Program-made: the position numbers and the translations under genes
The notes under the pieces: model-generated
What the model saw: only the letters and a program-made list of their open reading frames with translations
Told to the model about the DNA's origin: nothing
Databases searched by the model: none
Source of the DNA: Candidatus Gottesmanbacteria bacterium
GTDB lineage: Bacteria > Patescibacteriota > Microgenomatia > UBA10105 > UBA927
Assembly: GCA_016218215.1 (NCBI GenBank)
Contig: JACREM010000041.1
Coordinates: 1-62,805 of the forward strand
Direction: 5' to 3'
DNA: 62,805 nt
In this document: positions 28,104 to 43,444 of the stretch, piece after piece
Layout of the letters: each line of letters begins with the position of its first letter
Numbering within the stretch: the first letter of the stretch is position 1

Positions 28104-29281
28104 ATATATTGGTAGTCAGTGCAGTATTGCCGTTTCCGTTATATTCCGGAGGACAGATTCGATTGTATAATTTACTCCGGATTCTTTCTTCTGAACATAC
28201 TATTCATCTGGTCTCGTATATTCGGGATGAGAGCGAAAAAGCATATCTTTCCGAGCTTTCTTTTTGTGCATCGGTTCGAACGATAAAACGCGGCAGGGCA
28301 TGGCAAGGATCGTACGTACTAAAAACGTGTTTTAGTCAATATCCGTTTCTTTACGAGACATATACTGCAAGAGAAGCTTACGGTCAGATTCAGGAAGTAT
28401 TGAATACAAATCATATTGACTTAATTCACATAGAGCCTTCGTATGTCGGTCTCGGGATTCCAAAGACTACGCTACCAGTTATAGCAGTAGAACATAATAT
28501 TGAGCATGAAATATATATGCAATTCGTACATAAGGTACGATTCCCTTGGCTTCGTTGGCTTTTGAAATTTGATATTAAGAAAATGATTCATGCTGAAGAG
28601 ACAACCTGGAAATCCGTTGCTGGCGTAGTTGCGGTTTCGGAGGATAACAAATCCTATATTGAGAGAAAAGCTTTGGGAACACCGGTATATCTTGTGCGAA
28701 ATGGGGTAGATCTGCAAAAATTTTTATATCAGGACGAAAAAAAGAAACAGGTTCAACCTGTATTTTTATATGTTGGTAATTTTGCATGGATGGAAAATCA
28801 GGATGCGGTTTCATATTTAGTGTCAAAGCTTTGGCCTCATATACTTGCTCACTATCCCGGAGCCACTCTTCGAATTGTTGGCAAATCTATGTCAAACGCT
28901 TTGTCTCAAAAGATAAAAGGCACGAATGTTAAGATTCTCTCTGATGTTGAAAATATTCAAGAGGAATTGGATACTGCGACAATTATGCTTGCGCCTATAA
29001 GAATTGGTGGCGGAACAAAATATAAAATACTTGAATCTATGGCTTGCGGACTTCCGGTTGTAACAACAACGCTTGGTTCTGAAGGGATACATGCCCGTCA
29101 CGGAGTGCATTTGTATTGCGCAGACAGTCTTGATGAAACATTGTTTGCCATACATGCACTTCTTGGAAGTACCCGCGTATATAATACGATAAGAAAACAG
29201 GCTCGAAAACTTATCGAATCACGGTATTCCTGGGAGATGATTGCAAAAGATTTGGACTTTGCCTGGAAAAATACGCGATGA
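28100..29281 (+). CDS. GT4 glycosyltransferase
   Basis: 393 aa with MLAPIRIGGGTKYKILESMACGLPVVTTTLGSEG. Confidence 0.85.
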   Translation: MNILVVSAVLPFPLYSGGQIRLYNLLRILSSEHTIHLVSYIRDESEKAYLSELSFCASVRTIKRGRAWQGSYVLKTCFSQYPFLYETYTAREAYGQIQEVLNTNHIDLIHIEPSYVGLGIPKTTLPVIAVEHNIEHEIYMQFVHKVRFPWLRWLLKFDIKKMIHAEETTWKSVAGVVAVSEDNKSYIERKALGTPVYLVRNGVDLQKFLYQDEKKKQVQPVFLYVGNFAWMENQDAVSYLVSKLWPHILAHYPGATLRIVGKSMSNALSQKIKGTNVKILSDVENIQEELDTATIMLAPIRIGGGTKYKILESMACGLPVVTTTLGSEGIHARHGVHLYCADSLDETLFAIHALLGSTRVYNTIRKQARKLIESRYSWEMIAKDLDFAWKNTR

Positions 29282-30153
29282 AAGATATACAAGTTTCTAT
29301 CATTATTGTGAGTTTTAATACGAAGGAATTGCTGAAGGGCTGTCTTCATTCTATTGAAGCGTCACAGTGTCCGACTGATGCATGGGAAATTATTGTTGTC
29401 GATAATGCATCAACTGATGGATCGGCACAGTATCTCAAAAAAAAGAATCACGTTGTTTCTGTATTTAATGATACAAACGTAGGATTTTCCCGGGCGAATA
29501 ATCAGGGAATTTCGAAAGCGCACGGCAGATATGTGTTGTTTTTGAATTCTGATACAGAACTTTTGCCAAATAGCCTTCAGGTACTTTTGGCCTATATGGA
29601 TACATATCGTCGCGTGGGCGTTGTAACGTGTCGCGTGGAACTAGCAAACGGTGCCATAGATCCTGCATGTCATAGAGGTTTTCCGACTCCGTGGGCAGCC
29701 TTCACATATTTTTTTGGCTTAGAACGGCTTTTTCCCCGTTCGATTTATTTTTCTTCGTATCATCTTGGGTACAAAGATATGCAAACCATTCATGAAATAG
29801 ATGCACCAACTGGAGCTTTTTTTCTGACTCGAAGCGAAATCCTTCATACGCTGCATGGTTTTGATGAGGAATATTTTATGTATGGAGAAGATTTAGACCT
29901 TGCCTATCGAATTAAGAAGGCTGGTTGGCCAATTGTATATTATCCAAAAGTGTCGATATTGCACAGGAAAAAACAAAGCGGGAGAAGTGGAAAAAATGGA
30001 GAAATTAAAAAGCGTACTGATATCTATTTTTATGATACTATGAAAATTTTTTATAAAAAGTATTTTATGAAGGCATACCCCTTTTTTGTTACACGATTTA
30101 TCTTTATGATTTTATCTTTTAGGATCTGGATTATAAAAACGATCGGATGGTGA
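29278..30153 (+). CDS. GT2 family glycosyltransferase
   Basis: VSIIIVSFN, VVDNASTDGS, LFLNSDTEL and GAFFLTRSE..FDEEYFMYGEDLDLAYRIKKAGW are present. The C-terminus is hydrophobic. Confidence 0.85.
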   Translation: MKDIQVSIIIVSFNTKELLKGCLHSIEASQCPTDAWEIIVVDNASTDGSAQYLKKKNHVVSVFNDTNVGFSRANNQGISKAHGRYVLFLNSDTELLPNSLQVLLAYMDTYRRVGVVTCRVELANGAIDPACHRGFPTPWAAFTYFFGLERLFPRSIYFSSYHLGYKDMQTIHEIDAPTGAFFLTRSEILHTLHGFDEEYFMYGEDLDLAYRIKKAGWPIVYYPKVSILHRKKQSGRSGKNGEIKKRTDIYFYDTMKIFYKKYFMKAYPFFVTRFIFMILSFRIWIIKTIGW

Positions 30154-30156
30154 TAT

Positions 30157-31287
30157 ATGAAAATTGGCATCGATGCACGGCTTTATAGTGAAACGGGAGT
30201 TGGACGATATATTGCAAATATTATATCGCAATTACAGCAGATTGATCATGAGAATGAATACGTCGTGTATATGGGACGACGTGAAGCGGTCCTTTGTAAA
30301 ATCGTAAACGAAAAATTTATTATTCATCAGATTGAAGTTCCCTGGCATACCATACGGGAACAGATCATTATGCCCTGGTATTTTATTCGGGATGGAGTTG
30401 ATCTTGTCCATGCGCCGTATTTTACAATTCCTATATTTTTTCCCAAAAAAATCATAGTTACGGTTCATGACCTGATACTTTCTCATTTTACTACCGGAAA
30501 AGCGTCTACTCTGCCATTTTATTATTACGCGTTAAAAAGAATCGGGTATGAAGCGCTTATGAGATTCGGTTTGTTTAGAGCGTCGAAAATTATCGCAGTT
30601 TCTCATTCTACTGCACGGGATATTGAAAAAACATACGGGTATTCACATAAAATTCTTACCATTCCTGAAGGAATAGATCATATGACAAGGCTTAAGTTCG
30701 AACTGCCGAACATCAAAAATATCGCAAGTCATACAATAAAGAATTTTATTAAGTCTCCGTATATTCTCTATGTTGGAAATGCTTACCCCCATAAAAATCT
30801 TGAAATTCTTTTACAAAGTTTTTCTGAAGTGGTAAAAAGACAACACAAAACTGTATATTTAGCACTTGTTGGAAAGAATGACTATTTTTATAGTCATCTT
30901 CAAAAAAGCATTGATGATCGAGGGCTATCTGACCGGGTGAAGATATTTCATGACGCTTCAGATGAAGACCTCTCGATACTTTATGAGCATGCAGTCGTTA
31001 CAGCTTCTTTGTCGCTTTCCGAAGGCTTTGGTTTTCCGGTTCTTGAAGCTTTGGTTATGGGGTCTCGAATACTCTGTTCTGATATAGCTGTTTTTCATGA
31101 AGTGGCGGGGTCGTTACCTATATATGTTGATCCAAAAAACATCGGCATGATTGCCCAAGAAATGATGACATGTATGAGAGACACCGTGTATAAGGTTCCT
31201 TCAGAATCTGATATTTCTCTCCTTGTAAAGTCGTATAAATGGAAGGATGCTGCTTCTCAAACAAAAATCGCGTATGGTCTTGCGTAA
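30157..31287 (+). CDS. GT4 glycosyltransferase
   Basis: 376 aa with MKIGIDARLYSETGVGRYI and LSLSEGFGFPVLEALVMGSRILCSDIAVFHEV. Confidence 0.85.
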   Translation: MKIGIDARLYSETGVGRYIANIISQLQQIDHENEYVVYMGRREAVLCKIVNEKFIIHQIEVPWHTIREQIIMPWYFIRDGVDLVHAPYFTIPIFFPKKIIVTVHDLILSHFTTGKASTLPFYYYALKRIGYEALMRFGLFRASKIIAVSHSTARDIEKTYGYSHKILTIPEGIDHMTRLKFELPNIKNIASHTIKNFIKSPYILYVGNAYPHKNLEILLQSFSEVVKRQHKTVYLALVGKNDYFYSHLQKSIDDRGLSDRVKIFHDASDEDLSILYEHAVVTASLSLSEGFGFPVLEALVMGSRILCSDIAVFHEVAGSLPIYVDPKNIGMIAQEMMTCMRDTVYKVPSESDISLLVKSYKWKDAASQTKIAYGLA

Positions 31288-31296
31288 CGAAATCGT

Positions 31297-32436
31297 ATGA
31301 AAGTCGCGATTGTGTATGATCGAATGAATAAAGTCGGGGGAGCGGAGAGGATTTTAGTAAATCTTCATGCCATCTTTCCCGATGCTCCATTTTACACCTC
31401 GGTATTTGACCCGTCGGGCGCGGCGTGGTCAGCAGGTTTTCGAGTAATTCCAAGTTTTCTTCAAAAGATTTCGTTTGCTAGGAAAAATCATGAATTTTTT
31501 CCGTGGGTGACTCCTCTGGCGTTTGAAAATTTCTCTTTTAACTCATTTGATGTTGTTATAAGTGTGACGTCTGCGGAGGCAAAATCAGTCATTACAAAAC
31601 CAGAAACGCTTCATATTTGTTATTGCCTGACACCAACGAGGTATCTTTGGAGCGGGGTCAAAGAGTATGCAACTCATTCATCTTCTGGCGGTCTAGCCCG
31701 CATTGCGTCATGGTTTTTGAGAGTTTTTCTTAGATCGCTTCGAATGTGGGATAAAAGAGCATCATTTCGTCCTGACGCGTGGATTGCAATATCTGCTCTT
31801 GTAAAAAAAAGAATTGAATCATATTATTCAAAGCATGTTTTTTCTATTGTCTATCCTCCTGTTGATGACATGTTTTTCCAGAGTCCACTGCCGATGGCAA
31901 AAGGAGAATATTTTCTTATTGTATCTAGACTCGTTTCATACAAGCGAATTGATATTGTTATCAAAGCCTGTAATGTGCTTCGGAAAAAGCTTATTGTTGT
32001 GGGAGACGGCAGGGAGAAACGATACCTAAAAAAGCTTGCAGGAAGAACAGTGCAATTTATTGATAGATATCTGACAGATGTAGAGTTACTTTCATATTAT
32101 AGAGCCTGTTCGGCTTTTCTATTTGCAGGAGTAGAGGATTTTGGTCTTGTTGCGGCAGAGGCTCAGGCGGTAGGCAAACCGGTGATTGCATATAGTAAAA
32201 GCGGCATTTCGGAAATTATAGACGATCGTAAAACTGGAATATTGTTTCATGAACAATCCGTGCAAAGTCTTGTTGACGCGATGCGGCAATTTGATACAAT
32301 GAATTTTTCATCAAAGGATTGTCGGGCCCAGGTTCTAGCATTTAGAAGCATGATATTTAAGAAAAAATTTCTTTCTACGGTGAAAGACGTATATAATACT
32401 TATATGAAGAACATAAGAGAAGGGAATACTCTATGA
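31297..32436 (+). CDS. GT4 glycosyltransferase
   Basis: 379 aa with FLIVSRLVSYKRIDIVIKA and FAGVEDFGLVAAEAQAVGKPVIAYSKSG. Confidence 0.85.
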   Translation: MKVAIVYDRMNKVGGAERILVNLHAIFPDAPFYTSVFDPSGAAWSAGFRVIPSFLQKISFARKNHEFFPWVTPLAFENFSFNSFDVVISVTSAEAKSVITKPETLHICYCLTPTRYLWSGVKEYATHSSSGGLARIASWFLRVFLRSLRMWDKRASFRPDAWIAISALVKKRIESYYSKHVFSIVYPPVDDMFFQSPLPMAKGEYFLIVSRLVSYKRIDIVIKACNVLRKKLIVVGDGREKRYLKKLAGRTVQFIDRYLTDVELLSYYRACSAFLFAGVEDFGLVAAEAQAVGKPVIAYSKSGISEIIDDRKTGILFHEQSVQSLVDAMRQFDTMNFSSKDCRAQVLAFRSMIFKKKFLSTVKDVYNTYMKNIREGNTL

Positions 32437-33515
32437 AAGCAGTAATATTTGCAGGAGGAGTCGGAAGCAGACTTTGGCCATTATCCCGCAAAAAATCACC
32501 AAAGCAATTTGAAAAAATTATCGGTGAGCACTCCACGCTTCAATTAGCAGCAAATAGGCTACAGCCTGATTTTTCTTGGAAAGATGTCTATGTGTCTACT
32601 GGTACGAGCTATGTTCCGCTCGTACAAAAACAACTTGACTTACTCCCTCCCGACCATGTCATCGGAGAACCTCAGATGAGAGATGTAGGCCCAGCGGTCG
32701 GACTTGTGACAGCAATTTTGACAAAAGAATCTCCACATGAGCCAATGGTTATTTTATGGAGCGATCATCTGGTAAAAAAAGAGGCATTGTTTCGCTCTAT
32801 ACTGCAATCAGCAGGCGATCTGGTAAAAAAAGATCCAAAAAAAATTATCTTTGTATCTCAAAAGCCCAGATTTGCCAGTGAAAATCTAGGCTGGATCGAG
32901 TACGGGAAAGAAATTGCGAATCATGAAGGTATATCATTCCATTCATTTGTAGACTTTCAATATCGCCCGGATAAAAAAACGGCAGAAGCGTATTTTGCGA
33001 GCGGTCATCATGCATGGAATTTGGGATATTTTGTTACAACGCCAGGATTTCTGTGGGAGCAGTATAAACGATTCGTTCCAAATGTTTACGAGGGATTATC
33101 TCGTATTCGTGACGCGTGGAGGACGGATAAGTATGAGGAAGTACTAAACAGTGTTTATCCGACGTTTGAAAAAATTCATTTTGACAACGCGATTCTTGAA
33201 AAACTTGATCCGTCTCAGGCTCTGGTTGTATCTGAAAATATAGAGTGGAGTGATATAGGAGCATGGGAAGCGCTAAAGGAAGCGCTACAGGAAGCGAGTG
33301 ATAAAAATGTAACGAACGGGAACGTACTTTTAGAGACAACGAATGATTCGCTCGTGTATAACTACACGGATCAGATGGTTGTTGGCATTGATCTTGACCA
33401 GATGCTCGTTGTCAATACCGGTGACGTTGTTTTAGTGTGTAAAAAATCGTCTGTTCCAAAGATTAAAAAATTTGTTGAATCTCTTTCGGGCACCGAACAC
33501 GAACATCTGACATAA
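32433..33515 (+). CDS. manC: Mannose-1-phosphate guanylyltransferase-like nucleotidyltransferase
   Basis: MKAVIFAGGVGSRLWPLSRKKSPKQF and GEPQMRDVGPAVGL are present. At 360 aa it has no C-terminal isomerase domain. Confidence 0.8.
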   Translation: MKAVIFAGGVGSRLWPLSRKKSPKQFEKIIGEHSTLQLAANRLQPDFSWKDVYVSTGTSYVPLVQKQLDLLPPDHVIGEPQMRDVGPAVGLVTAILTKESPHEPMVILWSDHLVKKEALFRSILQSAGDLVKKDPKKIIFVSQKPRFASENLGWIEYGKEIANHEGISFHSFVDFQYRPDKKTAEAYFASGHHAWNLGYFVTTPGFLWEQYKRFVPNVYEGLSRIRDAWRTDKYEEVLNSVYPTFEKIHFDNAILEKLDPSQALVVSENIEWSDIGAWEALKEALQEASDKNVTNGNVLLETTNDSLVYNYTDQMVVGIDLDQMLVVNTGDVVLVCKKSSVPKIKKFVESLSGTEHEHLT

Positions 33516-33524
33516 ATTCCGATT

Positions 33525-34163
33525 ATGGTATATATATTACTTAAGCGGGCAATTGATATCTGTGGTAGCCTTATTCTCTGGATTATTTTTTTCCCGGTTT
33601 GTTTGGTTACTGCTGTAGCCATAAAGCTCGATAGCCCAGGTCCAATTTTAGCAGATACTCCGGATAGGGTTGGGAAAGAAGGGAGACTGTTTAAGCTGTT
33701 TAAGTTTCGATCAATGATTGTAAATGCACACGAAACTCTTCGGACGAACCCAAAATTTTCAAAACTTTATAGTGAATACAAGAAAAATAGTTATAAATTA
33801 AAAGAGGATCCTCGCGTGACCCGCATAGGACGGTTTATTAGAAAACATTCCATTGATGAGATACCACAGTTGTTAAATGTGCTTCGTGGAGAGATGAGTC
33901 TGGTTGGCCCGCGTCCGTATTATCCTGATGAGCTTGTTGATCAACAAAGAAAGTATCCTCATACGCAGGAACTTGTGAAAGTCGTATTGTCTGCAAAACC
34001 GGGGATTACAGGTCATTGGCAGGTGTCTGGACGAAGCGAAGTAAATTTTGACAAGCGTATAAAAATGGACGCGGACTATGTAAAGAAGCGTTCGATTGTT
34101 TTAGATATTACCATTTTATTTAAAAGTCCGTGGGCAATGATTTCCGGTAAGGGCGCTGTTTGA
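33525..34163 (+). CDS. Polyprenyl-phosphate sugar-1-phosphate transferase (small monotopic PGT, WbaP/PglC-like)
   Basis: [37 protein letters not shown] and [21 protein letters not shown] are present. Confidence 0.9.
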
Positions 34164-36181
34164 CAATGCTCTCTTCTTTCGAGACAATACTAGTCATGCC
34201 AGATACTATGCAGGTAACACAAGTCCCTATGCAGGAACACACGCCTTCTGCTATTCCAAATAAACCTAAGAACCTCATTTTGCGCCGTATTGGTGTCATA
34301 TCTCTAATTCTTTTAGTAATTATTCTTATAGTTTTTGGTATTTTTGCAGTGACGCTCATGCCATTAAAAGATGTCTATGCAAAAACCCAGGAGGTTATGG
34401 TCGTCGGAAAGGAAGTCGGGGTGGCGCTAAAATCTCAAAATCTCGACCAGATGAAAGAAAAACTTGCTGCCACCCGTGTCAAGATGAAAGAGCTCGAGAC
34501 TACGTATGGCCGAGTCACGGGTCTTTCGAGTGTGCCTTTTCTTGGACTGTATATCCAAGATGGATCACATGCTATAAAAGCTGGATTTGCCGGTCTGGAT
34601 GCTTTAGAAAATGCAGTATTGGCGCTTGAGCCTCATGCAGATTTATTGGGTTTGAAAGGGAAAAGCAAATTTGTACAAGGGACAGCTGACGATCGCATTC
34701 AGACAGCCGTAAAAACCATGAACGCACTGCTTCCAAAAGTAACCGCAATTGCAGAAAACGTAAAAGTGCTTCAAAAAGAACTTGTTGCAATTGACCCGTC
34801 AAGGTACCCGGAAAATGTAAAAGGCCTTGCGGTTCAAAGTCAGATTCAGTCAACAAAGGATGTCATCGATAATGCGGCGACACTTTTTGTCAACGCTCAG
34901 CCTTTTCTCATGAATTTGCCAAAGCTGCTCGGAGAACCAACTGAAAAACGATATTTAGTATTATTTCAAAATGACAAGGAGCTGCGACCTACAGGCGGTT
35001 TCTTAACCGCATATGCGCAGTTTCGTCTGGTTCACGGGAAAATGATACTAGAAAAAGCGGATGATATATACAAACTTGATGCTTCCTTAAAAAAAGAGTT
35101 TAAAGCGCCGCGTGAGATTCTCACGTTTCACAAAGGCGTGTATACACTTCATATACGAGACAGTAATCTTTCTCCTGACTTTAAGCTTTCTATGCAGCAG
35201 TTTGAGGAAATGTATAATACCGCCTCAGGAAAAGAAAAAATTGATGGAATTTGGGCTGTCGATACGCACGTACTTGTAGAAGCATTGAAAATTTTAGGTC
35301 CTATGTACTTGAGTGGAAAAGAGTTTAGCGCTGATAATGACAAACGATGCGATTGTCCGAAAGCAGTATACGAATTGGAAGACTATTCAACCCGTCCAGT
35401 TGGATATGTGCGAGAAGATAGAAAGGACGTTATAGGAATACTTCTACGAGATCTTTTACAAAAAGCTCTTGGAGTTTCACCTTCACAATACTGGGGGAGG
35501 CTGTTTCAGATGCTCTTTTCAGAGATAAATCAAAAACATGTACTTGCGTATTTTAAGGATTCGGCAGTTCAGAAATCCGTTGAAAGTTTTAATCTCGCCG
35601 GTCGGATTATGACTTCTACAGAAAGTGCAGCGCTATTAAAATATCAGGAAGGAACATGGGACTATTTGCATGTAAATAACAGCAATATGGCTGGTGCTAA
35701 GTCTAATTTATTCGTTTCTGAAAAAATCACGAAGGATACGACTGTTGAATCTAATGGTGCTTTGACAACGAGATTGACAGTCGAATACAAAAATCCCTTC
35801 AAAGGATCGGATTGCGGCCTTGAAAGCGGAGGACTCTGTCTCAATGCGCCGCTTCGAAATTGGGTGAGGGTGTATGTTCCAAGGGGAAGTAAACTCGTCG
35901 AGAGTAAAGGGACGCAATCACCCAAAGATGGAAAACCTGTTTTGATGGATACGTATGATAGTCTTGATAAAACTGTATTTGAAGGATTTTTGGTCGTCAA
36001 TCCCCTGGGTACGGCTCGGCTTGATGTGACGTACACATCAACGGTTAAAGACTCAGTAAACGGGTATAAACTTCTCATTCAAAAACAACCTGGCACTGAT
36101 AAACAGGAATATATTCTCAAGCTTAACGGAAAAGATCGGAAGAAATTTGAGCTTCTCTCTGATACTGAAGTTCAACTTTAA
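34160..36181 (+). CDS. DUF4012-type membrane-anchored extracytoplasmic protein
   Basis: 673 aa with a single N-terminal TM helix. The family-typical core is LFQNDKELRPTGGFLTAYAQFRLVHGKM. ATGA-coupled to the PGT gene. Confidence 0.7.
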   Translation: MTMLSSFETILVMPDTMQVTQVPMQEHTPSAIPNKPKNLILRRIGVISLILLVIILIVFGIFAVTLMPLKDVYAKTQEVMVVGKEVGVALKSQNLDQMKEKLAATRVKMKELETTYGRVTGLSSVPFLGLYIQDGSHAIKAGFAGLDALENAVLALEPHADLLGLKGKSKFVQGTADDRIQTAVKTMNALLPKVTAIAENVKVLQKELVAIDPSRYPENVKGLAVQSQIQSTKDVIDNAATLFVNAQPFLMNLPKLLGEPTEKRYLVLFQNDKELRPTGGFLTAYAQFRLVHGKMILEKADDIYKLDASLKKEFKAPREILTFHKGVYTLHIRDSNLSPDFKLSMQQFEEMYNTASGKEKIDGIWAVDTHVLVEALKILGPMYLSGKEFSADNDKRCDCPKAVYELEDYSTRPVGYVREDRKDVIGILLRDLLQKALGVSPSQYWGRLFQMLFSEINQKHVLAYFKDSAVQKSVESFNLAGRIMTSTESAALLKYQEGTWDYLHVNNSNMAGAKSNLFVSEKITKDTTVESNGALTTRLTVEYKNPFKGSDCGLESGGLCLNAPLRNWVRVYVPRGSKLVESKGTQSPKDGKPVLMDTYDSLDKTVFEGFLVVNPLGTARLDVTYTSTVKDSVNGYKLLIQKQPGTDKQEYILKLNGKDRKKFELLSDTEVQL

Positions 36182-36187
36182 AGCATC

Positions 36188-36751
36188 ATGAGATCACAGC
36201 GAATGTATAGGGCTGAAGGCGTGATAATTCATCGGAAGATTTACGGTGAAGCTGATAGATTTCTGACTATATTCACAAAACATCAGGGGAAGATTCGAGT
36301 CCTGGCAAAAGGAATCCGAAAAATTACCAGTAAACGTGCTCCACATCTGGATACACTAAGCATTGTATCTATGATTGTGTATGCCGGGAAAAGCGTTGAT
36401 ATTGTTGGAGAATGTGCTCGATTTGGGAAGCAGTTTTCATTTTCAGACGATCTGGTTAAAGTAAGTTTTTCCTATTATGTGTGTGAGCTTGTTGATGCAC
36501 TTACAGCATTAAATATTGCAAATGAAAATCAATATTTTATGTTTGTTCGTACTCTTCAAAAAATAGAGCGTGCTACTTCTCGAAGTGAATTATATCAAAT
36601 TGTGTATGAGTTCGCGCTGTCACTTCTCATAGCCCTTGGGTTTTTGCCGGGATCGTCTGAGGTTCAAAAAGAGACGATAAATCAGTTCATAGAGTCAATT
36701 ATCGAGCGAAGGCTTAAGACCGTACGACTCTTGACAAGTTTTGCAAACTGA
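36188..36751 (+). CDS. recO: DNA repair protein RecO (short form)
   Basis: The N-terminal OB fold reads YRAEGVIIHRKIYGEADRFLTIFTKHQGKIRVLAKGIRKITSKRAPHLD. It is only 187 aa. Confidence 0.75.
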   Translation: MRSQRMYRAEGVIIHRKIYGEADRFLTIFTKHQGKIRVLAKGIRKITSKRAPHLDTLSIVSMIVYAGKSVDIVGECARFGKQFSFSDDLVKVSFSYYVCELVDALTALNIANENQYFMFVRTLQKIERATSRSELYQIVYEFALSLLIALGFLPGSSEVQKETINQFIESIIERRLKTVRLLTSFAN

Positions 36752-36760
36752 GGGTACACT
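36731..36760 (+). promoter_or_regulatory. Sigma70-like promoter for the glyS leader
   Basis: TTGACA (36731-36736), an 18-nt spacer, then TACACT (36755-36760). It lies in the last codons of recO. Confidence 0.5.
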
Positions 36761-36899
36761 AGAGAAAGAAGGCGAAGATCTCATGGCACGAGGGAGCCAA
36801 AATGAAAAATTGAGGTGCTTCTTAAAGAAAGAAGAAGAAGGGTGGAACCGTCCTACGAATATAGGATCCCTGACACAATTATTGTGGAGGGGATTTTTT
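36761..36899 (+). promoter_or_regulatory. T-box leader (tRNA-Gly-sensing transcription attenuator), compact Stem I
   Basis: AGAGA box at 36761-36765. The T-box core is AAGGGUGGAACCGUCC (36838-36853). The antiterminator is GGG(36840-42)/CCC(36868-70), a 7-nt bulge UGGAACC (36843-49) and GUCCU/AGGAU (36850-54/36863-67). It competes with the terminator at 36866-36899. Gly codons GGC/GGU lie in the upstream stem region. Confidence 0.65.
36866..36899 (+). terminator. Intrinsic terminator of the T-box leader
   Basis: The stem is AUCCC..CACAA (36866-78) paired with UUGUG..GGGAU (36882-94). A U-run follows to 36899. Its 5' arm overlaps the antiterminator 3' arm. Confidence 0.7.
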
Positions 36900-36915
36900 G
36901 TAGGATTTTTTATTT

Positions 36916-38310
36916 ATGACAACACTTGATACAATCGTCAGTTTATGTAAGAGACGGGGGTTTGTATATCCCAATTCAGAAATTTATGGTGGGATAGCCG
37001 GGTTTTACGACATGGGCCCGATGGGACATCTTTTGCGTCAGAATATGAAAAAACTCTTTTGGGAGTTCATGCTGGTTGATCATGAAAATATTTTTCCGAT
37101 CGATGGGACAATTATTACACATCCAAAGGTGTGGGAGGCATCCGGGCATGTAGGGAGCTTTGCAGATGCAATGGTTGAATCTACTGGCGGACATGCAGGC
37201 AACAAAAGATATCGCGCTGACCATCTGATAGAAGAAATGTACTCCGAAGCTGAGCTAAGGTCTGCTGATTTAGCTGCAAAAAAAGAAGGAATGAGTAGCA
37301 TTGAGGCTTATTCAATATTATTAAAAGGGAAAAAAGCACCAGATGGAGGAATTTTGGGGGAAGTCAAAAAATTCAGCCTCATGGTTGAGACTTCGCTCGG
37401 TGTTGTGGAGGGCGATAAAAAAAGTGCATATCTCAAAGGAGAGGCATGCCAGACTATTTATCTTGATTATCAGAATGTGCTCGACAGCATGCATCCAAAG
37501 ATACCATTCGGGATTGCTCAGATAGGAAAAGCATTTCGCAATGAAGTGGCGAACCCTCAGTTTATGTTAAGACTCAAAGAGTTTGAGCAGTGGGATATGC
37601 AGTTTTTTGTCAATCCAAAAGAAATGGATACATGGTATGAATATTGGAAAGAGCAGAGAATGAATTGGTATAAATCCATATTTAACGATAAAGAGAACTT
37701 GAGATTTAGACAGCATAGAGATGATGAATTGGCTCATTATGCCAAAAAGGCTTTTGACATAGAGTATAAGACACCGTCAGGATGGAAAGAAGGAGAAGGA
37801 ATACATTGGAGGGGGGATTGGGACCTGTCGCGTCACGGGAAATACAGTGGTCATGATTTTACGTATACAGATGCAGAGACTGGAGAAAAGTTTATTCCCT
37901 GGATCGTGGAAACTTCGGGGGGAGTAGATCGCACATTTCTATTTTTATTGCTCGATGCATACAAAGAGGATGGAGATCGTGTTTTTCTAAAACTTCATCC
38001 CAAATTGTCACCATATACTGTGGCTGTATTTCCATTGGTTCGAAACAAGCCGGATATCACTGTAAAGGCGAAAGACGTGTATAAACATTTGAAGTTAGAT
38101 TTGAAAATGTCCACCGCGTGGGATGACCGAGGGAATATTGGGAAGAGATATTATGCCCAGGATGAGATAGGAACACCCTGGTGTATTACAATAGACTATA
38201 CAACGCTTGAAGATAATACGGTTACACTACGAGATCGCGATACGGCAACTCAGATTCGTTTGCCTATAGATAAAATTCGTGAATATGTATTTACACGTAT
38301 GCAGGTTTAG
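36916..38310 (+). CDS. glyS: Glycine--tRNA ligase (dimeric class II GlyRS)
   Basis: CKRRGFVYPNSEIYGGIAGFYDMGPMG, GKAFRNE, ETSGGVDR and the anticodon-binding C-terminus are present. Confidence 0.92.
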   Translation: MTTLDTIVSLCKRRGFVYPNSEIYGGIAGFYDMGPMGHLLRQNMKKLFWEFMLVDHENIFPIDGTIITHPKVWEASGHVGSFADAMVESTGGHAGNKRYRADHLIEEMYSEAELRSADLAAKKEGMSSIEAYSILLKGKKAPDGGILGEVKKFSLMVETSLGVVEGDKKSAYLKGEACQTIYLDYQNVLDSMHPKIPFGIAQIGKAFRNEVANPQFMLRLKEFEQWDMQFFVNPKEMDTWYEYWKEQRMNWYKSIFNDKENLRFRQHRDDELAHYAKKAFDIEYKTPSGWKEGEGIHWRGDWDLSRHGKYSGHDFTYTDAETGEKFIPWIVETSGGVDRTFLFLLLDAYKEDGDRVFLKLHPKLSPYTVAVFPLVRNKPDITVKAKDVYKHLKLDLKMSTAWDDRGNIGKRYYAQDEIGTPWCITIDYTTLEDNTVTLRDRDTATQIRLPIDKIREYVFTRMQV

Positions 38311-38330: not shown

Positions 38331-38807
38331 ATGAATAAAAAAATGATGATTATAGTTGGCGCGGCACTCGCCCTTGTAATTTTTGTTGTTATTTTAGTTG
38401 TGAATATTGCAAAGAGCATGAGCGTAAAACCGTCAAAGCAGGCAGCAAGTCAGGATGAGATCGATCTGACGTTACCCACGGCTGATTCGTCAATACTCGT
38501 AAATGCTACTTCGAGTAAAACCAAAGATAATACTGTCGTATTGACCGCAAGCGGACTTGCAGGTAAAGTGAGTCTGGTTGCCTATGAAATGACGTACGAA
38601 AGCGGCGGGCTTGTGAAGGGAGTAAATTCCGGCAGTAAGCCAATTGAAACCATGGGAAAAGATAGTTTTGAGCGTGAGGTGTATCTTGGCACGTGTTCCA
38701 AAAATGTCTGCAAGCCGGACGGCGGAGTAAACAAAATTTCAGTTGTTATGGAATTTACTGACGGGAATGGAAAAAAGAGCCAATTTTCAAAAGATTTTCC
38801 TCTCTAG
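38331..38807 (+). CDS. Membrane-anchored extracytoplasmic protein, unknown function
   Basis: 158 aa with an N-terminal TM helix (MMIIVGAALALVIFVVILVV) and a Ser/Thr/Gly-rich beta-type domain. An AAGGAGG Shine-Dalgarno sequence lies upstream. Confidence 0.6.
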   Translation: MNKKMMIIVGAALALVIFVVILVVNIAKSMSVKPSKQAASQDEIDLTLPTADSSILVNATSSKTKDNTVVLTASGLAGKVSLVAYEMTYESGGLVKGVNSGSKPIETMGKDSFEREVYLGTCSKNVCKPDGGVNKISVVMEFTDGNGKKSQFSKDFPL

Positions 38808-38986: not shown

Positions 38987-39391
38987 ATGAAGGTGTTCCT
39001 TGGGGAATATGACCATAGCATCGATGAGCGCGGCCGCATAACATTGCCGCGCAAGATTCGATTTGAAATAAACGACCATGAATTAATACTTTCTCGCGGG
39101 TTTGATAGCTGCATCTTTGGGTTTGACCGAGAGCGATGGGAGAGGGAGTCAGAAAAACAACTCGAAACGCCTATTACAGAAGAAAAGGGAAGAAGTTTAC
39201 GCCGATACATGTTTTCTGCTGCGGAAAAGGTAGAGATTGATAAGCTTGGTCGAATATTGATGCCTACCCACCTTAAGGAATACGCTTCAATTGAAAAAGA
39301 GGTAATCATCATCGGAGCAGGGGACCATTTTGAAATTTGGGATAAAGAGAAGTGGGAGAAGTACTCGATGGAGATGGATGCGCATGGATAA
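38987..39391 (+). CDS. mraZ: Transcriptional regulator MraZ
   Basis: FLGEYDHSIDERGRITLPRKIR and a second SpoVT/AbrB-like half with DKLGRILMPTHLKEY. Confidence 0.9.
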   Translation: MKVFLGEYDHSIDERGRITLPRKIRFEINDHELILSRGFDSCIFGFDRERWERESEKQLETPITEEKGRSLRRYMFSAAEKVEIDKLGRILMPTHLKEYASIEKEVIIIGAGDHFEIWDKEKWEKYSMEMDAHG

Positions 39392-40247
39392 GTTCCATAT
39401 TTCCATCATGTCGGAGGAGATCGTAGCTGCGCTTTGTATTGTAAAAGATAGATGGTACGTCGATGCGACTGTAGGAAGTGGGGGACATACCGAGGCGATT
39501 GCACGATCCGGCGGGAGGGTGTTGGGACTTGATGTCGACCCTGATGCAATTGAATACGCGAAAAAGAGATTAGCCGGTATGGAGGGGGTCATATTGCAAC
39601 ATCGTTCATATGCAGAATTGGAAAGGGCGGTAAAGGAGGCCGGGATAGAGCGAGTAGATGGTATAGTTTTTGATCTTGGAGTGTCAAGTTTTCAATTGGA
39701 TACTCCTGCGAGAGGGTTTAGTTATCGATTTGAGGACGCGCCTTTAGACATGAGATTTGGAGATATCAAAAAGAAGACAGCAGAAGAAGTATTGTCGCAG
39801 GCAAATGAAGAGGAGTTATATGAAATTATTGCAACGTATGGTGAAGAAGAGCGTGCTCGGTCAATTGCTCATGCTCTTGTCCGCGCCCGTAAGATAAAAA
39901 AGATTGTCAGTGTTTCAGACTTAAATAGTGCCTTAATCACTATTGGAGGAACCGGACATGATCATTTTCGAATGTTGTCACGAGTGTATCAGGCGTTACG
40001 CATTGTGGTAAACGATGAAATGAGGCAGTTGCAGAATGGATTACTGGAGGCCGAAAAAGCACTAGGTTCGGGAGGAAAGTTAATAGTGTTAACGTTTCAT
40101 TCTATTGAGGATAGGGTGGTAAAGCGATTTATGCTTTCTCACGCTTTTACTGTTTTGACAAAAAAACCAATAATGCCGTCGAAACATGAGCTTTATGAAA
40201 ACTCTCGAGCAAGAAGCGTGAAGATGAGGATCGCAGAAAAACTATGA
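39384..40247 (+). CDS. rsmH: 16S rRNA (cytosine1402-N4)-methyltransferase RsmH/MraW
   Basis: DATVGSGGHTEAI, FDLGVSSFQLD and TFHSIEDRVVKRF are present. Start trimmed to MDKFHISIM (8-nt overlap with mraZ). Confidence 0.9.
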   Translation: MDKFHISIMSEEIVAALCIVKDRWYVDATVGSGGHTEAIARSGGRVLGLDVDPDAIEYAKKRLAGMEGVILQHRSYAELERAVKEAGIERVDGIVFDLGVSSFQLDTPARGFSYRFEDAPLDMRFGDIKKKTAEEVLSQANEEELYEIIATYGEEERARSIAHALVRARKIKKIVSVSDLNSALITIGGTGHDHFRMLSRVYQALRIVVNDEMRQLQNGLLEAEKALGSGGKLIVLTFHSIEDRVVKRFMLSHAFTVLTKKPIMPSKHELYENSRARSVKMRIAEKL

Positions 40248-40549
40248 ATCGATTCGCATACATAGTAAAACCAGCATTTTTTGTGTCATGTTTTTTTGTG
40301 TTTTTTCTTGTGGTAATCGAGATTGTCGCCGCGAACTCGATGGTTACACTTGGAAAAGAAGTAAAGTCAATAAATGACAAGCTTGATGTGGTTTTGTATG
40401 AAAATGAAGCACTTGAGAAAAAAATAGCTTCTGCTTCATCTATAGCATCAATTGAGGTTCGTGCACGGGAGTTTGGATTTGCAGAACGGATTAAAACTGT
40501 ACATATCGGACAACAATCACTTACCGCAAAACTTCCCGGTATTCGATAG
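40244..40549 (+). CDS. ftsL: FtsL-like cell division protein
   Basis: 101 aa with one TM helix, a coiled coil and IASIEVRAREFGF. It occupies the canonical position between rsmH and ftsI. Confidence 0.6.
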   Translation: MNRFAYIVKPAFFVSCFFVFFLVVIEIVAANSMVTLGKEVKSINDKLDVVLYENEALEKKIASASSIASIEVRAREFGFAERIKTVHIGQQSLTAKLPGIR

Positions 40550-40552
40550 TCT

Positions 40553-42232
40553 ATGAGTCGAATTTCAACGGTTTTCCTCTTTTTTTGTTTTATTTTTGTA
40601 CTCGTTTTATCTCGATTATATTACTGGCAGATTGTAGCTCGTGACGCACTTCAGGCAGAGGCAGACTCACAGCATTATTTTAAATTTTCCCTCCCAGCTG
40701 TTCGTGGTGAAATTCGTTCGTGGGATGCGACTCCACTCGTAATGAATGATCAGGTGTATCTGGTCTATGCAGAGCCAAAAAATATTGAAAATTTAGGCTT
40801 TTTTGCAAAAAGCATATCGGAAATATTGTCCGTAGACATGGCAACTCTTCTGACTAAAATATCAGATAATAAAACACTTTGGGTTCCCTTGAAGCATAAA
40901 GTGGGTGAAGACATAGTATCAAAACTTAAAACATTAAAGATGAAAGGCTTAGGGTATGAACGTGAGTCTCATCGGTACTATCCTGAGTCATCAATGTCTG
41001 CCCATATTTTGGGGTTTGTCGGTTCAGACGAAAATGGGAATGATAAAGGGTATTTTGGACTTGAGGGGTATTATAATCGAGAGCTTCGTGGTAAAAACGG
41101 GAGTTTACTTCAAGAAAAAGACGTTCGTGGTGCTCCAATATTAGTTGGAGATGTAACAAGAATTGATCCAGAAAATGGCCGAACGCTTGTGCTGTATCTA
41201 GATCGTATTGTTCAACATATAATTGAGAAAAAATTACTCGATGGAATAGAAAAATATGGAGCAAAAGAAGGCTCTATTGTCATTATGGATCCAAAAATTG
41301 GTGGCATAATCGCATCTGCATCGTTTCCGTCATACGACCCATCGAACTATACAGCATTTGATAAGGGGGTATACAAAAATCCTGTCGTCGGAAGTAGTTA
41401 TGAGCCTGGATCAACGTTTAAGTCGCTTGTTATGGCAGCTGGTATAGAGGAAGGTGCGGTAACCCCTATGACAACGATGGATGAAAGTGGCCCTGTGCGG
41501 GTAGGTGAGTATGCTATTCGGACATGGAACAACGAATATCACGGGAAAATTACCATGACACAGATATTAGAACGATCCTCAAATGTTGGGATGGTGTATG
41601 TTGGGGAAAAACTTGGAAAAGATAAACTTTTACAATATATACACGATTTTGGATTCGGACAGGCAACAGGAGTGGATCTGGAAGATGAAAGTAGCCCTGA
41701 ACTTCGCGAGTCATCAAAGTGGGGAGATATTGATCTTGCTACAGCATCATTTGGTCAGGGAATCGCTGTCACACCTCTACAGATGGTTCGAGCAGTGGCT
41801 GCACTCGCTAATGGAGGTATGCTTATGGAGCCTCATGTTGTACGTGAAATGAGAGACTTACGCGGGAATGTGTTTCCTGTCCCTGTAAACAAGATTCGAA
41901 GAGTAGTAAGCGAGCGCACGGCTAAACAGGTGACAGAGATGTTGGTGTCATCTGTAGACAATGGGGAAGCTAAATGGGCAAAGCCAAAAGGATATAGGAT
42001 AGCAGGAAAAACCGGTACTGCTCAGATTCCTGTTGCGGGCCACTATGATGCAACGAAGACCATTGCATCGTTTGTTGGATATGCTCCAGCAGATGATCCA
42101 AAATTTGTGATGCTTGTGCTCTTGAGTGAACCTTCTTCATCACAGTGGGGATCTGAGACCGCAGCACCGTTGTTTTTTTCGATAGCAAAAGAGTTGTTTT
42201 TGCACTACAATATAGCGCCAATCGGCTTCTAG
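40553..42232 (+). CDS. ftsI: Class B penicillin-binding protein (FtsI/PBP transpeptidase)
   Basis: N-terminal TM helix, dimerisation domain and the SXXK (GSTFKS), SXN (RSSNVG) and KTG (GKTGTAQ) motifs. Confidence 0.9.
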   Translation: MSRISTVFLFFCFIFVLVLSRLYYWQIVARDALQAEADSQHYFKFSLPAVRGEIRSWDATPLVMNDQVYLVYAEPKNIENLGFFAKSISEILSVDMATLLTKISDNKTLWVPLKHKVGEDIVSKLKTLKMKGLGYERESHRYYPESSMSAHILGFVGSDENGNDKGYFGLEGYYNRELRGKNGSLLQEKDVRGAPILVGDVTRIDPENGRTLVLYLDRIVQHIIEKKLLDGIEKYGAKEGSIVIMDPKIGGIIASASFPSYDPSNYTAFDKGVYKNPVVGSSYEPGSTFKSLVMAAGIEEGAVTPMTTMDESGPVRVGEYAIRTWNNEYHGKITMTQILERSSNVGMVYVGEKLGKDKLLQYIHDFGFGQATGVDLEDESSPELRESSKWGDIDLATASFGQGIAVTPLQMVRAVAALANGGMLMEPHVVREMRDLRGNVFPVPVNKIRRVVSERTAKQVTEMLVSSVDNGEAKWAKPKGYRIAGKTGTAQIPVAGHYDATKTIASFVGYAPADDPKFVMLVLLSEPSSSQWGSETAAPLFFSIAKELFLHYNIAPIGF

Positions 42233-42271
42233 TAGCGCTCTGGTAGATCGTTTTCATGGTATAATACAGGG

Positions 42272-43444
42272 ATGATACGGATGATCAAAAATTGGTATCA
42301 TTTCATGCGGGCTGTAGCTTCGATACTGTATTTTCGGTTTCCAGACAGGAATCTCGTTGTCATTGGAGTTACTGGTACAGACGGGAAAACGACAACCACA
42401 ACCCTTATTTATCACATATTGCGATCCTTAGGGGTGAAAACCTCGATGATAACATCTGTTCATGCGGTCATTGCCGGAAAGGAGTATGACACGGGGTTTC
42501 ATGTGACATCTCCGGATTCGTACTACATTCAAAAATATCTTCGAGAGGCAATTGATCACGGTGATACGCATTTTGTCCTTGAGGTCACATCTCATGGATT
42601 GGCTCAGCACAGATTTTTCGGTGTTCGATTTTCTGTCGGCGTACTGACAAATATTACTCACGAACATCTCGATTGGCATAGGTCGTTTGATGAGTATATG
42701 AGAACAAAATTTACTCTTTTACGACGATCAGCCATAGCAGTATTAAATCGAGATGAAACAGATGTATATACAAAAGCAGTAGCAAGTATGGGAAACAAGA
42801 AAATAGTAACGTATGCCATACGAAGAGATGCAATGATGACAACGAATAACACGCCGTTTCAAACGTTACTTCCGGGAGAATTCAATCAATACAATAGCTT
42901 AGCTGCAATTTCAGCACTATATGCTCTGGGTTTTCCTATGAAAAAGATTGTCCGAGCTGTTTCAACATTTCAGGGAGTTGTAGGAAGAATGGAAGTACTG
43001 AAAGTTCGCCCGTTTCGTATCATCGTAGATTTTGCTCATACCCCAAATGCTATAGAGCAGGTAGGGAAAACCGTACGGGCGCAAACAAAAGGAAAACTTA
43101 TCCATGTATTTGGTTCAGCAGGCCTTCGGGACGCGTCTAAACGCCCTATGATGGGAAAAAATTCGTCCCAATTTGCTGATGTTATTGTTTTAACAGAAGA
43201 AGATTATCGTACAGAGAATGTACAAGATATCATGACTTCTATTCGAAAGGGGATTTCGATTGATACCCCAACATACCAGTATGAAAATAGGTACGATGCT
43301 ATCGAATTCGCGCTGTCTATCGCAAAGCCCGGGGACACAGTGCTTGTAACAGGGAAAGGACATGAGAAAAGTCTTTGCCGCGGAACAGTTGAGATTCCAT
43401 GGAGCGATCAGGAAACAATACAACAGATATTGAAAAAGATTTGA
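42272..43444 (+). CDS. murE: Mur ligase, MurE-like, lacking the N-terminal UDP-binding domain
   Basis: The P-loop GVTGTDGKTTTT is already at residues 33-44. DFAHTPNA and GSAGLRDASKRPMMG..VLTEEDYRTEN are present. The protein is only 390 aa. Confidence 0.75.
   Translation: MIRMIKNWYHFMRAVASILYFRFPDRNLVVIGVTGTDGKTTTTTLIYHILRSLGVKTSMITSVHAVIAGKEYDTGFHVTSPDSYYIQKYLREAIDHGDTHFVLEVTSHGLAQHRFFGVRFSVGVLTNITHEHLDWHRSFDEYMRTKFTLLRRSAIAVLNRDETDVYTKAVASMGNKKIVTYAIRRDAMMTTNNTPFQTLLPGEFNQYNSLAAISALYALGFPMKKIVRAVSTFQGVVGRMEVLKVRPFRIIVDFAHTPNAIEQVGKTVRAQTKGKLIHVFGSAGLRDASKRPMMGKNSSQFADVIVLTEEDYRTENVQDIMTSIRKGISIDTPTYQYENRYDAIEFALSIAKPGDTVLVTGKGHEKSLCRGTVEIPWSDQETIQQILKKI

Follow-up and report, generated by a model that had tools for sequence, protein, structure and literature searches.

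The spacer between recO and glyS in a 62,805-nt stretch of DNA from a Candidatus Gottesmanbacteria bacterium (contig JACREM010000041.1; the whole stretch is hereafter the window) probably encodes, at positions 36771-36899, a T-box transcription attenuator that is specific for glycine and whose decoding module is minimal, a reading that rests on sequence comparison and folding. T-box riboswitches are a model for how one RNA reads another. The leader described here belongs to a coherent, covarying family that is a minimal variant of the T-box, in which an ultrashort Stem I with a kink-turn (K-turn) at its base is followed by a single-stranded linker, a canonical discriminator and, in most members, a terminator. 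The initial annotation of this DNA had proposed a compact glycine T-box attenuator before glyS, and that proposal is supported by homology and covariation, by the gene context and by a terminator and an antiterminator that exclude each other, while several of its structural details have to be redrawn. The coordinates of all features are collected in Table 1.

The family was assembled from loci found by protein search and by one metagenome motif scan (numbered L001 to L051, with a and b denoting the first and second of two tandem leaders). The motif common to the window, L001a/b, L003a/b and L008 reads U-GGC-A-N-G-N-GGGAG and lies 42-53 nt before AGGGUGGAACCG; scanning metagenomes for it yielded 42 loci. 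One of these, L046, was rejected as a chance pattern match, being GC-rich and having neither a K-turn nor a model match. With the leaders of the genome loci added, and with L046 and the duplicates removed, there were 44 distinct leaders, which come from Gottesmanbacteria/Patescibacteria and Saccharibacteria metagenome-assembled genomes (MAGs) and from metagenomes. The first downstream gene encodes a dimeric glycyl-tRNA synthetase (GlyRS) in about 30 cases, is glyA, encoding serine hydroxymethyltransferase (SHMT), in the 'b' copies, and encodes PurU (formyltetrahydrofolate deformylase) in three; the downstream genes are all tied to glycine or to glycine-linked one-carbon metabolism.

A covariance model built from 22 leaders (R1) recovered all members together with additional tandem copies, namely L040a (GGGCA) and L022b/L035b, and scores the window at 74 bits. 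A second model (R2) was built from 25 leaders of the other sub-type only, with the window and its close relatives excluded, and finds exactly one significant match in the 62.8-kb window, at 36768-36873 (61.4 bits, E 5.6e-17). In the model-fitted alignment, which comprises 47 distinct rows, standard pairs make up 91.8% of pair cells. Column shuffles give 71.3%, with 0 of 500 attaining the value of the real alignment, and controls with the partner slid by 1-3 columns give 41-50%; 18 of the 23 pairs have changes on both sides, and all five helices are supported. A plain MAFFT alignment, which is not fitted to any structure, gives 90.1% paired cells versus 76.7% in shuffles and 39-51% in slid controls. 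Some loci carry tandem minimal glycine T-boxes, each with its own terminator (L001 1405-1725, L003 1390-1715, L024, L033, L040 and L022/L035 771-1048), which precede glyA-glyS in L001, L003, L024, L033 and L040, and glyS in L022/L035. Where the second ('b') copy stands before glyA, its K-turn is degenerate, with UA for GA and a 7-nt 5' bulge.

The layout of Stem I was read across the 44 leaders by an anchored parse that is free of any energy model. It is identical in 39 of them, the remaining five being glyA-type 'b' leaders with UA replacing GA, and starts with a helix of 2-8 bp and a 3-nt bulge, continues with G-A, a single nucleotide and a 3-bp helix, and is capped by a 6-9 nt loop carrying UGGCA, after which the 3' side consists of the return strand, a G, a further G-A and the strand that closes the first helix; the helix below the loop is 3-4 bp long across the family. 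This layout corresponds to the standard K-turn from which Stem I of a T-box rises; the K-turn is predicted here, and the specifier loop is in a terminal position. In the window the C-helix pairs GGC 36771-73 with GCC 36796-98, the K-turn consists of the bulge GAA 36774-76, tandem G.A pairs (G36777 A36778 / G36794 A36795) and the following U36779.G36793, and the upper helix CUC 36780-82 / GAG 36790-92 is capped by the 7-nt loop AUGGCAC 36783-89. The C-helix and P1 covary, the C-helix is predicted by RNAalifold unaided, and the K-turn is the best-conserved feature outside the discriminator. The distal part of a conventional Stem I is absent: there is no S-turn, AG bulge or distal loop, and the stem stops in its 7-nt loop 3 bp above the K-turn.

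The loop presents the glycine codon GGC followed by a conserved purine, and U36784 before it makes the loop resemble an anticodon loop (U-NNN-R). GGC-A is present in all seven leaders that are free of pattern selection (L001a, L001b, L003a, L003b, L008, L040a and L022b), and a glycine specifier agrees with the downstream genes for GlyRS, SHMT and PurU. The initial annotation had considered three candidate specifiers, of which GGC-A at 36785 stands; GGC at 36771 is the 5' strand of the C-helix, and GGU-G at 36814, the candidate it had favoured, belongs to the RAG-NG motif, both being ruled out as specifiers by homology and covariation. Nor does the closing helix that it had drawn for Stem I, AAGAAG with CUUCUU, survive, as CUUCUU (36818-23, one position from where it had been placed) is the 5' strand of Stem III and pairs with AAGAAG 36829-34.

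The linker that follows Stem I measures 13 nt in the window and 13-30 nt across the family, is A-rich and variable in sequence, and leads into a conserved aAg-gnG. In this interval from Stem I to RAG-NG, the family alignment and RNAalifold reveal neither room nor conserved pairing for a IIA/B pseudoknot or a Stem II. Stem III has changes on both sides in 5/5 modelled pairs, with 95% of cells paired, and the R2 model aligns it in the same register. An RRRNG/RAG motif, Stem III and AA in succession are the hallmark of the T-box discriminator (PMC7778990, PMC11297988), and the window carries this signature, with GAG-GUG 36812-17 on the 5' flank of Stem III and AA 36835-36 on its 3' flank. There is also a sub-family with a long Stem III and the conserved apical motif ACUGG(R)NNAUCAU (alignment A3 columns 66-98), located before glyA, purU and some glyS genes and seen in L001 1620-1650, L011 990-1020, L017, L021, L034, L050 and the second copy of L022. 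Conservation of this loop points to a possible additional contact, either tertiary or with the tRNA; the window does not have the motif.

The T-box core, AAGGGUGGAACCGUCC, lies at 36837-52, where it had been annotated before. Comparison of the conserved T-box sequence AGGGUGGNACCGCG with AGGGUGGAACCGUC of the window (36839-52) gives agreement at 12 of 14 positions, and the last two differ as they do in the 'a-type' relatives. Helix A1, the 7-nt bulge and helix A2 of the antiterminator are all confirmed, A1 and A2 each being one pair longer than first described; both helices covary over the family, and RNAalifold predicts the three elements unaided. Within the bulge (UGGAACC 36843-49), UGGA would pair with the UCCA 3' end of the tRNA. 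The free bulge nucleotide, N in UGGN, is an A in 42 of the 44 leaders, which fits U73 of tRNA-Gly, the usual discriminator base of this tRNA in bacteria.

The terminator and its sharing of the antiterminator 3' arm were likewise confirmed, in the sequence and by folding: nucleotides 36866-71 are common to the 5' arm of the terminator and to the antiterminator, and the computed stabilities are -15.0 and -9.4 kcal/mol, respectively. The leader as a whole folds more stably than 200 of 200 shuffles (z = -4.3). A terminator scan did not list the hairpin at 36866-94 because its stem is broken by a GA/GA internal loop. A terminator-like hairpin with four or more U behind it occupies the equivalent place in 39 of the 44 leaders, and its 5' arm mostly includes the CCCU strand of A1. 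In leaders L029 2891-3060 (= L045), L031 3494-3660 (= L039) and L044 866-1010 the U-run is absent and the hairpin after the antiterminator extends over the Shine-Dalgarno sequence; these are probably translational versions of the minimal T-box. In L030 (607-800) Stem I, Stem III and the T-box bulge are intact and run directly into the GlyRS coding region without an A1 3' strand or terminator, which may be a deletion or an assembly artefact.

Table 1. Features of the recO-glyS leader region (coordinates refer to the window)
Feature	Coordinates	Strand	Details and basis
Putative sigma-70-type promoter	36731-36760	+	TTGACA (36731-36), 18-nt spacer, TACACT (36755-60); scan, 10/12 matches; function predicted
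Ultrashort Stem I, 28 nt (K-turn and specifier hairpin)	36771-36798	+	Anchored parse, covariation
Specifier codon GGC (Gly) 36785-87 and conserved purine A36788	36785-36788	+	Sequence comparison
Single-stranded A/U-rich linker 36799-811, then RAG-NG motif (GAG 36812-14, GUG 36815-17)	36799-36817	+	Family alignment
Stem III: CUUCUU 36818-23, loop AAAGA, AAGAAG 36829-34; then spacer AAGA 36835-38	36818-36834	+	Covariation
Antiterminator	36839-36871	+	A1 AGGG 36839-42 / CCCU 36868-71; A2 GUCCUA 36850-55 / UAGGAU 36862-67, loop CGAAUA
Intrinsic terminator: AUCCCU-GA-CACAA, loop UUA, UUGUG-GA-GGGGAU	36866-36894, U-run 36894-99	+	Folding
GUAGGA 36900-05 with Shine-Dalgarno AGGA 36902-05, then glyS start codon	36900-36918	+	Sequence
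glyS, dimeric (alpha2) glycine--tRNA ligase, 464 aa	36916-38310	+	NCBIfam NF003211 540 bits; Pfam tRNA-synt_2b and HGTP_anticodon

The mechanism that these features suggest follows the general logic of a T-box attenuator, and each of its steps that involves tRNA or RNA polymerase is a proposal built on the observed sequence elements, covariation, competing structures and gene context. Transcription would start at around 36767, and the nascent RNA would fold the 28-nt K-turn hairpin, whose 7-nt loop would display GGC-A in the manner of an anticodon loop. The GCC anticodon of tRNA-Gly would pair with GGC 36785-87, with A36788 stacking on the duplex, and the K-turn would redirect the flexible 13-nt linker such that RAG-NG, Stem III and the antiterminator could reach the acceptor end of the tRNA. 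If the tRNA were uncharged, its 3' UCCA would pair with UGGA 36843-46 and thereby stabilise the weaker antiterminator, allowing read-through into glyS; if it were charged with glycine, the antiterminator would remain unstabilised and the stronger terminator (36866-94) would prevail, stopping transcription in the U-run 36894-99. In contrast to all T-boxes characterised so far, the leader offers neither a distal Stem I platform for the tRNA elbow nor Stem II or IIA/B, so that the tRNA would have to be captured solely through the three G-C pairs of codon and anticodon and the contact with the NCCA end.

On the 5' side, the promoter proposed in the initial annotation, TTGACA-18-TACACT, is indeed present in the letters, overlaps the recO stop codon (36749-51) and would place the start of transcription at about 36767; such sites are no commoner locally than in shuffles (3 seen versus 3.5 expected). 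The equivalent place of L003 has TTGACT-17-TAAAAT. What had been called an AGAGA box (36761-65) is a run of letters adjoining the -10 hexamer, 5' of the structured RNA, and it has no counterpart at that position in the L001 and L003 leaders. A 62-aa ORF with a TTG start that spans the leader (36741-36929) was rejected as a leader peptide: the homologous leaders show indels and base-pair-preserving, non-coding variation. Downstream, the glyS start codon ATG (36916-18) lies 16 nt past the U-run.

The relation of the family to the Rfam T-box model RF00230 merits separate consideration. A permissive search of related loci gave sub-threshold RF00230 matches in L001 and L003 (about 1.3 kb before glyS), and directly before glyS in L008 (Saccharibacteria) and L006 (Chloroflexia). 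Members of the family reach 24-51 bits with this model, the gathering score of which is 93, and 7 of 20 tested loci have no match at E<=1. In the RF00230 alignments of members only Stem III and the antiterminator are aligned and the real Stem I is treated as an insertion; the window is missed because the model expects a long Stem I, which the leader does not have. A comparison of the 230 nt before glyS in the five closest genomes uncovered no conservation with the window, a result that is misleading because the T-boxes of L001 and L003 sit 1.3 kb upstream, before glyA. Locus L006 (2617-2960) carries a canonical long-Stem-I glycine T-box (RF00230, 65 bits) before a GlyRS of like type, followed by a direct duplication of about 75 nt that contains a second copy of the discriminator's 3' half together with the Shine-Dalgarno sequence and an ATG.

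Several points weigh against a self-contained tRNA-sensing attenuator in the window. The elbow platform of a long Stem I, which catches the tRNA elbow quickly, is considered essential in transcriptional T-boxes (PMC7583486, PMC6197855, PMC11297988), and a short Stem I is the mark of translational T-boxes, in which Stem II and the IIA/B element compensate for tRNA binding (PMC7583486, PMC11297988). The leader has neither an elbow platform nor Stem II, and might by itself bind the tRNA too weakly or too slowly. Rfam found no family over the whole window at gathering scores, and the search with RF00230 that the initial annotation had suggested gave no T-box match even when relaxed to E<=10 for 36600-37000, where the sole match was a chance GAIT element (E 2.2). 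The initial annotation had itself named such an outcome as refuting its proposal; it was not taken as a refutation here, since relatives have sub-threshold RF00230 matches confined to the discriminator. The motif scan required TGGCA, GNGGGAG and AGGGTGGNACCG, so that the invariance of these elements in L010-L051 is by construction and only seven leaders are free of this bias. Neither the window nor the 51 loci (404 kb in total; ARAGORN, two runs) yielded a tRNA gene. Finally, glyS is not preceded by a T-box in the close relatives L004 and L007, and the element is therefore dispensable. We consider it an even question whether the family constitutes a natural minimal class of transcriptional T-box, lacking elbow platform and Stem II and decoding with nothing more than the 28-nt K-turn hairpin and its GGC-A loop, that occurs in the Candidate Phyla Radiation (CPR; Gottesmanbacteria, Saccharibacteria) and other uncultured lineages and is invisible to RF00230-based annotation.

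The history of the locus can be followed in the gene order of its relatives. Upstream of the leader lies recO (36188-36751; Pfam RecO_N and RecO_C), and the nearest genomes by GlyRS identity (79-88%) are Patescibacteria and Candidatus Gottesmanbacteria MAGs, or mislabelled MAGs of identical gene order, which places the window in a CPR bacterium and fits the reduced-genome lineage surmised in the initial annotation. The order DUF4012 - recO - leader - (glyA) - glyS is kept among these relatives, while the presence of the leader is patchy. In L001 and L003, recO is followed by T-box a, T-box b, glyA and glyS. The window leader corresponds to T-box a of L001, with 75% identity across 142 nt (E 7e-18); it is the only T-box before glyS in this genome, where T-box b and glyA are both missing. 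The arrangement in the window is best explained by descent from a glyA-glyS operon with tandem T-boxes, of which T-box b and glyA were lost. The spacers between recO and glyS measure 44-70 nt in L004 (2931-3001) and L007 (2072-2116), and that of L002 (2462-3000) is 540 nt long, has been replaced and has no T-box; it contains an unrelated ORF (about 125 aa), and of glyA just the final 35 nt or so are left. From these leader-less spacers it follows that leader and glyA have been lost more than once.

Further afield, the DNA upstream of the leader (29278-36181) is occupied by an envelope cluster of glycosyltransferase, sugar-transferase and DUF4012 genes, and the DNA downstream (38987-43444) by a dcw cluster with mraZ, rsmH, an ftsL-like gene, a penicillin-binding protein and a Mur ligase. 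Just after glyS, at 38331-38807, a conserved membrane-anchored protein of 158 aa is encoded that has no known family. As for tRNA genes, a count of zero in 404 kb of mostly CPR-like sequence is below expectation.

Patchiness of this kind raises the question of whether the leader in the window still functions. It could be a decaying remnant, the first half of a tandem T-box / glyA / glyS operon that now serves as a constitutive partial terminator or is inert, and this is what the retention of T-box a only (compared with L001/L003) and the complete loss of the leader in L004, L007 and L002 would lead one to expect; the K-turn bulge, moreover, ends in A where most members have U, and two outer pairs of the consensus A1 are missing. 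All helices are intact in the window, however, and the differences from L001a keep the pairing: A2 reads GUCCUA/UAGGAU in the window versus GUCCUGC/GCAGGAU, and Stem III is wholly different yet paired. The window also scores like other members with both models (74 bits with R1, 61 bits with R2), and it retains promoter-like hexamers, the terminator with its U-run and a Shine-Dalgarno sequence. An intact T-box whose differences from L001a preserve pairing thus disfavours decay, which we hold to be decidedly unlikely. Even further from the evidence is the idea of a chance resemblance, or of an ordinary terminator after recO that senses nothing: the missing RF00230 match and the lack of enrichment of GGTGGNACCG-like words in the window and of promoter-like sites are what it can draw upon, and it is scarcely credible in the face of the independent R2 match, covariation in five helices, a glycine-related gene context that is consistent over the family and the fold z-score.

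Two other explanations accept a working T-box and assign it a different mode of action. The loss of the elbow contact lowers the first-step affinity of glyQS for tRNA about 50-fold (PMC6197855), and the contacts of elbow platform and Stem II might be taken over by a protein that binds the K-turn or by a tertiary interaction with another RNA element. L7Ae-family proteins bind T-box K-turns (PMC7583486), and the K-turn is the feature best conserved outside the discriminator; the sub-family with an apical motif in its long Stem III and the tandem copies in several genomes would also suit such a helper. Set against this, no candidate protein was identified here, Stem III of the window is short with an unconserved loop, and strong GGC:GCC pairing is thought to let glycyl T-boxes dispense with Stem II (PMC11404447), so a dependence on helpers is unlikely, if worth entertaining. 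The other explanation turns on the pairing of UCCUAC 36851-56 with GUAGGA 36900-05, which is present in the minimum-free-energy structure and contributes roughly another -5 kcal/mol to the terminator state; speculatively, and for this sequence only, UCCUAC may mask the ribosome-binding site when A2 is unformed. Control could then be mainly translational, with the ribosome-binding site hidden or exposed as in the actinobacterial ileS T-boxes, and the hairpin and U-run would be secondary. The leaders without a U-run whose hairpin overlaps the Shine-Dalgarno sequence (L029/L045, L031/L039 and L044) provide a precedent, and a short Stem I has so far been tied to translational T-boxes (PMC7583486). 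Yet the anti-Shine-Dalgarno pairing is not conserved in relatives, and a strong hairpin with six U in the window, together with hairpin and U-run in 39 of 44 members, makes mainly translational control very improbable.

A transcription attenuator that senses tRNA-Gly thus stays the preferred reading. A family that has no elbow platform and no Stem II and is nonetheless mostly terminator-based would provide a direct test of which contacts a T-box requires. If its members act unaided, three G-C codon-anticodon pairs and the NCCA contact would suffice for co-transcriptional tRNA sensing, contradicting the view that the elbow contact is essential; the family would define the smallest natural T-box, with about 100 nt up to the antiterminator, extend T-boxes into the CPR, and show that RF00230-based surveys (e.g. 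TBDB) under-count T-boxes outside Firmicutes. It would also offer a compact scaffold for engineered tRNA-responsive switches. In the searchable literature we found no report of T-boxes in CPR, Patescibacteria or Saccharibacteria, nor of glycine T-boxes with a truncated Stem I, though an earlier description may exist.

The nearest known system is the glyQS/glyS T-box of Bacillus, Geobacillus and Staphylococcus (RF00230 class I transcriptional; 4LCK, 4MGN and 6POM, cited in PMC7583486). Common to both are the K-turn at the base of Stem I, the GGC-A specifier, a single-stranded linker without Stem II or IIA/B, the RAG-NG motif, Stem III and its AA flanks, the 7-nt UGGA bulge, a terminator overlapping the 3' strands of the antiterminator and the regulation of GlyRS. 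Unlike glyQS, the window lacks the S-turn, the hinge bulge and the AG bulge and distal loop that make up the interdigitated T-loop platform for the tRNA elbow, and its specifier is housed in a terminal loop (6-9 nt in the family) rather than in an internal loop. The glyQS leader of B. subtilis, with 182 nt from Stem I to antiterminator in the construct studied, has been called one of the simplest T-boxes (PMC6197855), whereas the same span in the window is 101 nt (36771-36871), and RF00230 does not detect it.

A second comparison is offered by the actinobacterial ileS translational T-boxes with their short or 'ultrashort' Stem I (Sherwood et al. 2015; M. tuberculosis, N. farcinica 6UFG and 6UFM; via PMC7583486 and PMC11297988). 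They too have a truncated Stem I without elbow platform, keep the K-turn and possess a canonical discriminator; they differ in retaining Stem II (S-turn) and the IIA/B pseudoknot, which are reported to be essential for tRNA binding by a short Stem I, while the 13-nt linker of the window shows neither structure nor conservation. The ileS T-boxes sense isoleucine and act on translation, whereas the minimal family has a glycine specifier and, in 39 of 44 members, a hairpin with U-run. As regards their sequestrator hairpin over the Shine-Dalgarno sequence, the window has a terminator and U6 and, in addition, may form an anti-Shine-Dalgarno pairing of 36851-56 with 36900-05 that is not conserved. 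Tandem T-boxes are also known, for example before some Firmicutes operons; compared with these, L001, L003, L024, L033, L040 and L022/L035 have two complete minimal glycine T-boxes in series, and the window has a single copy.

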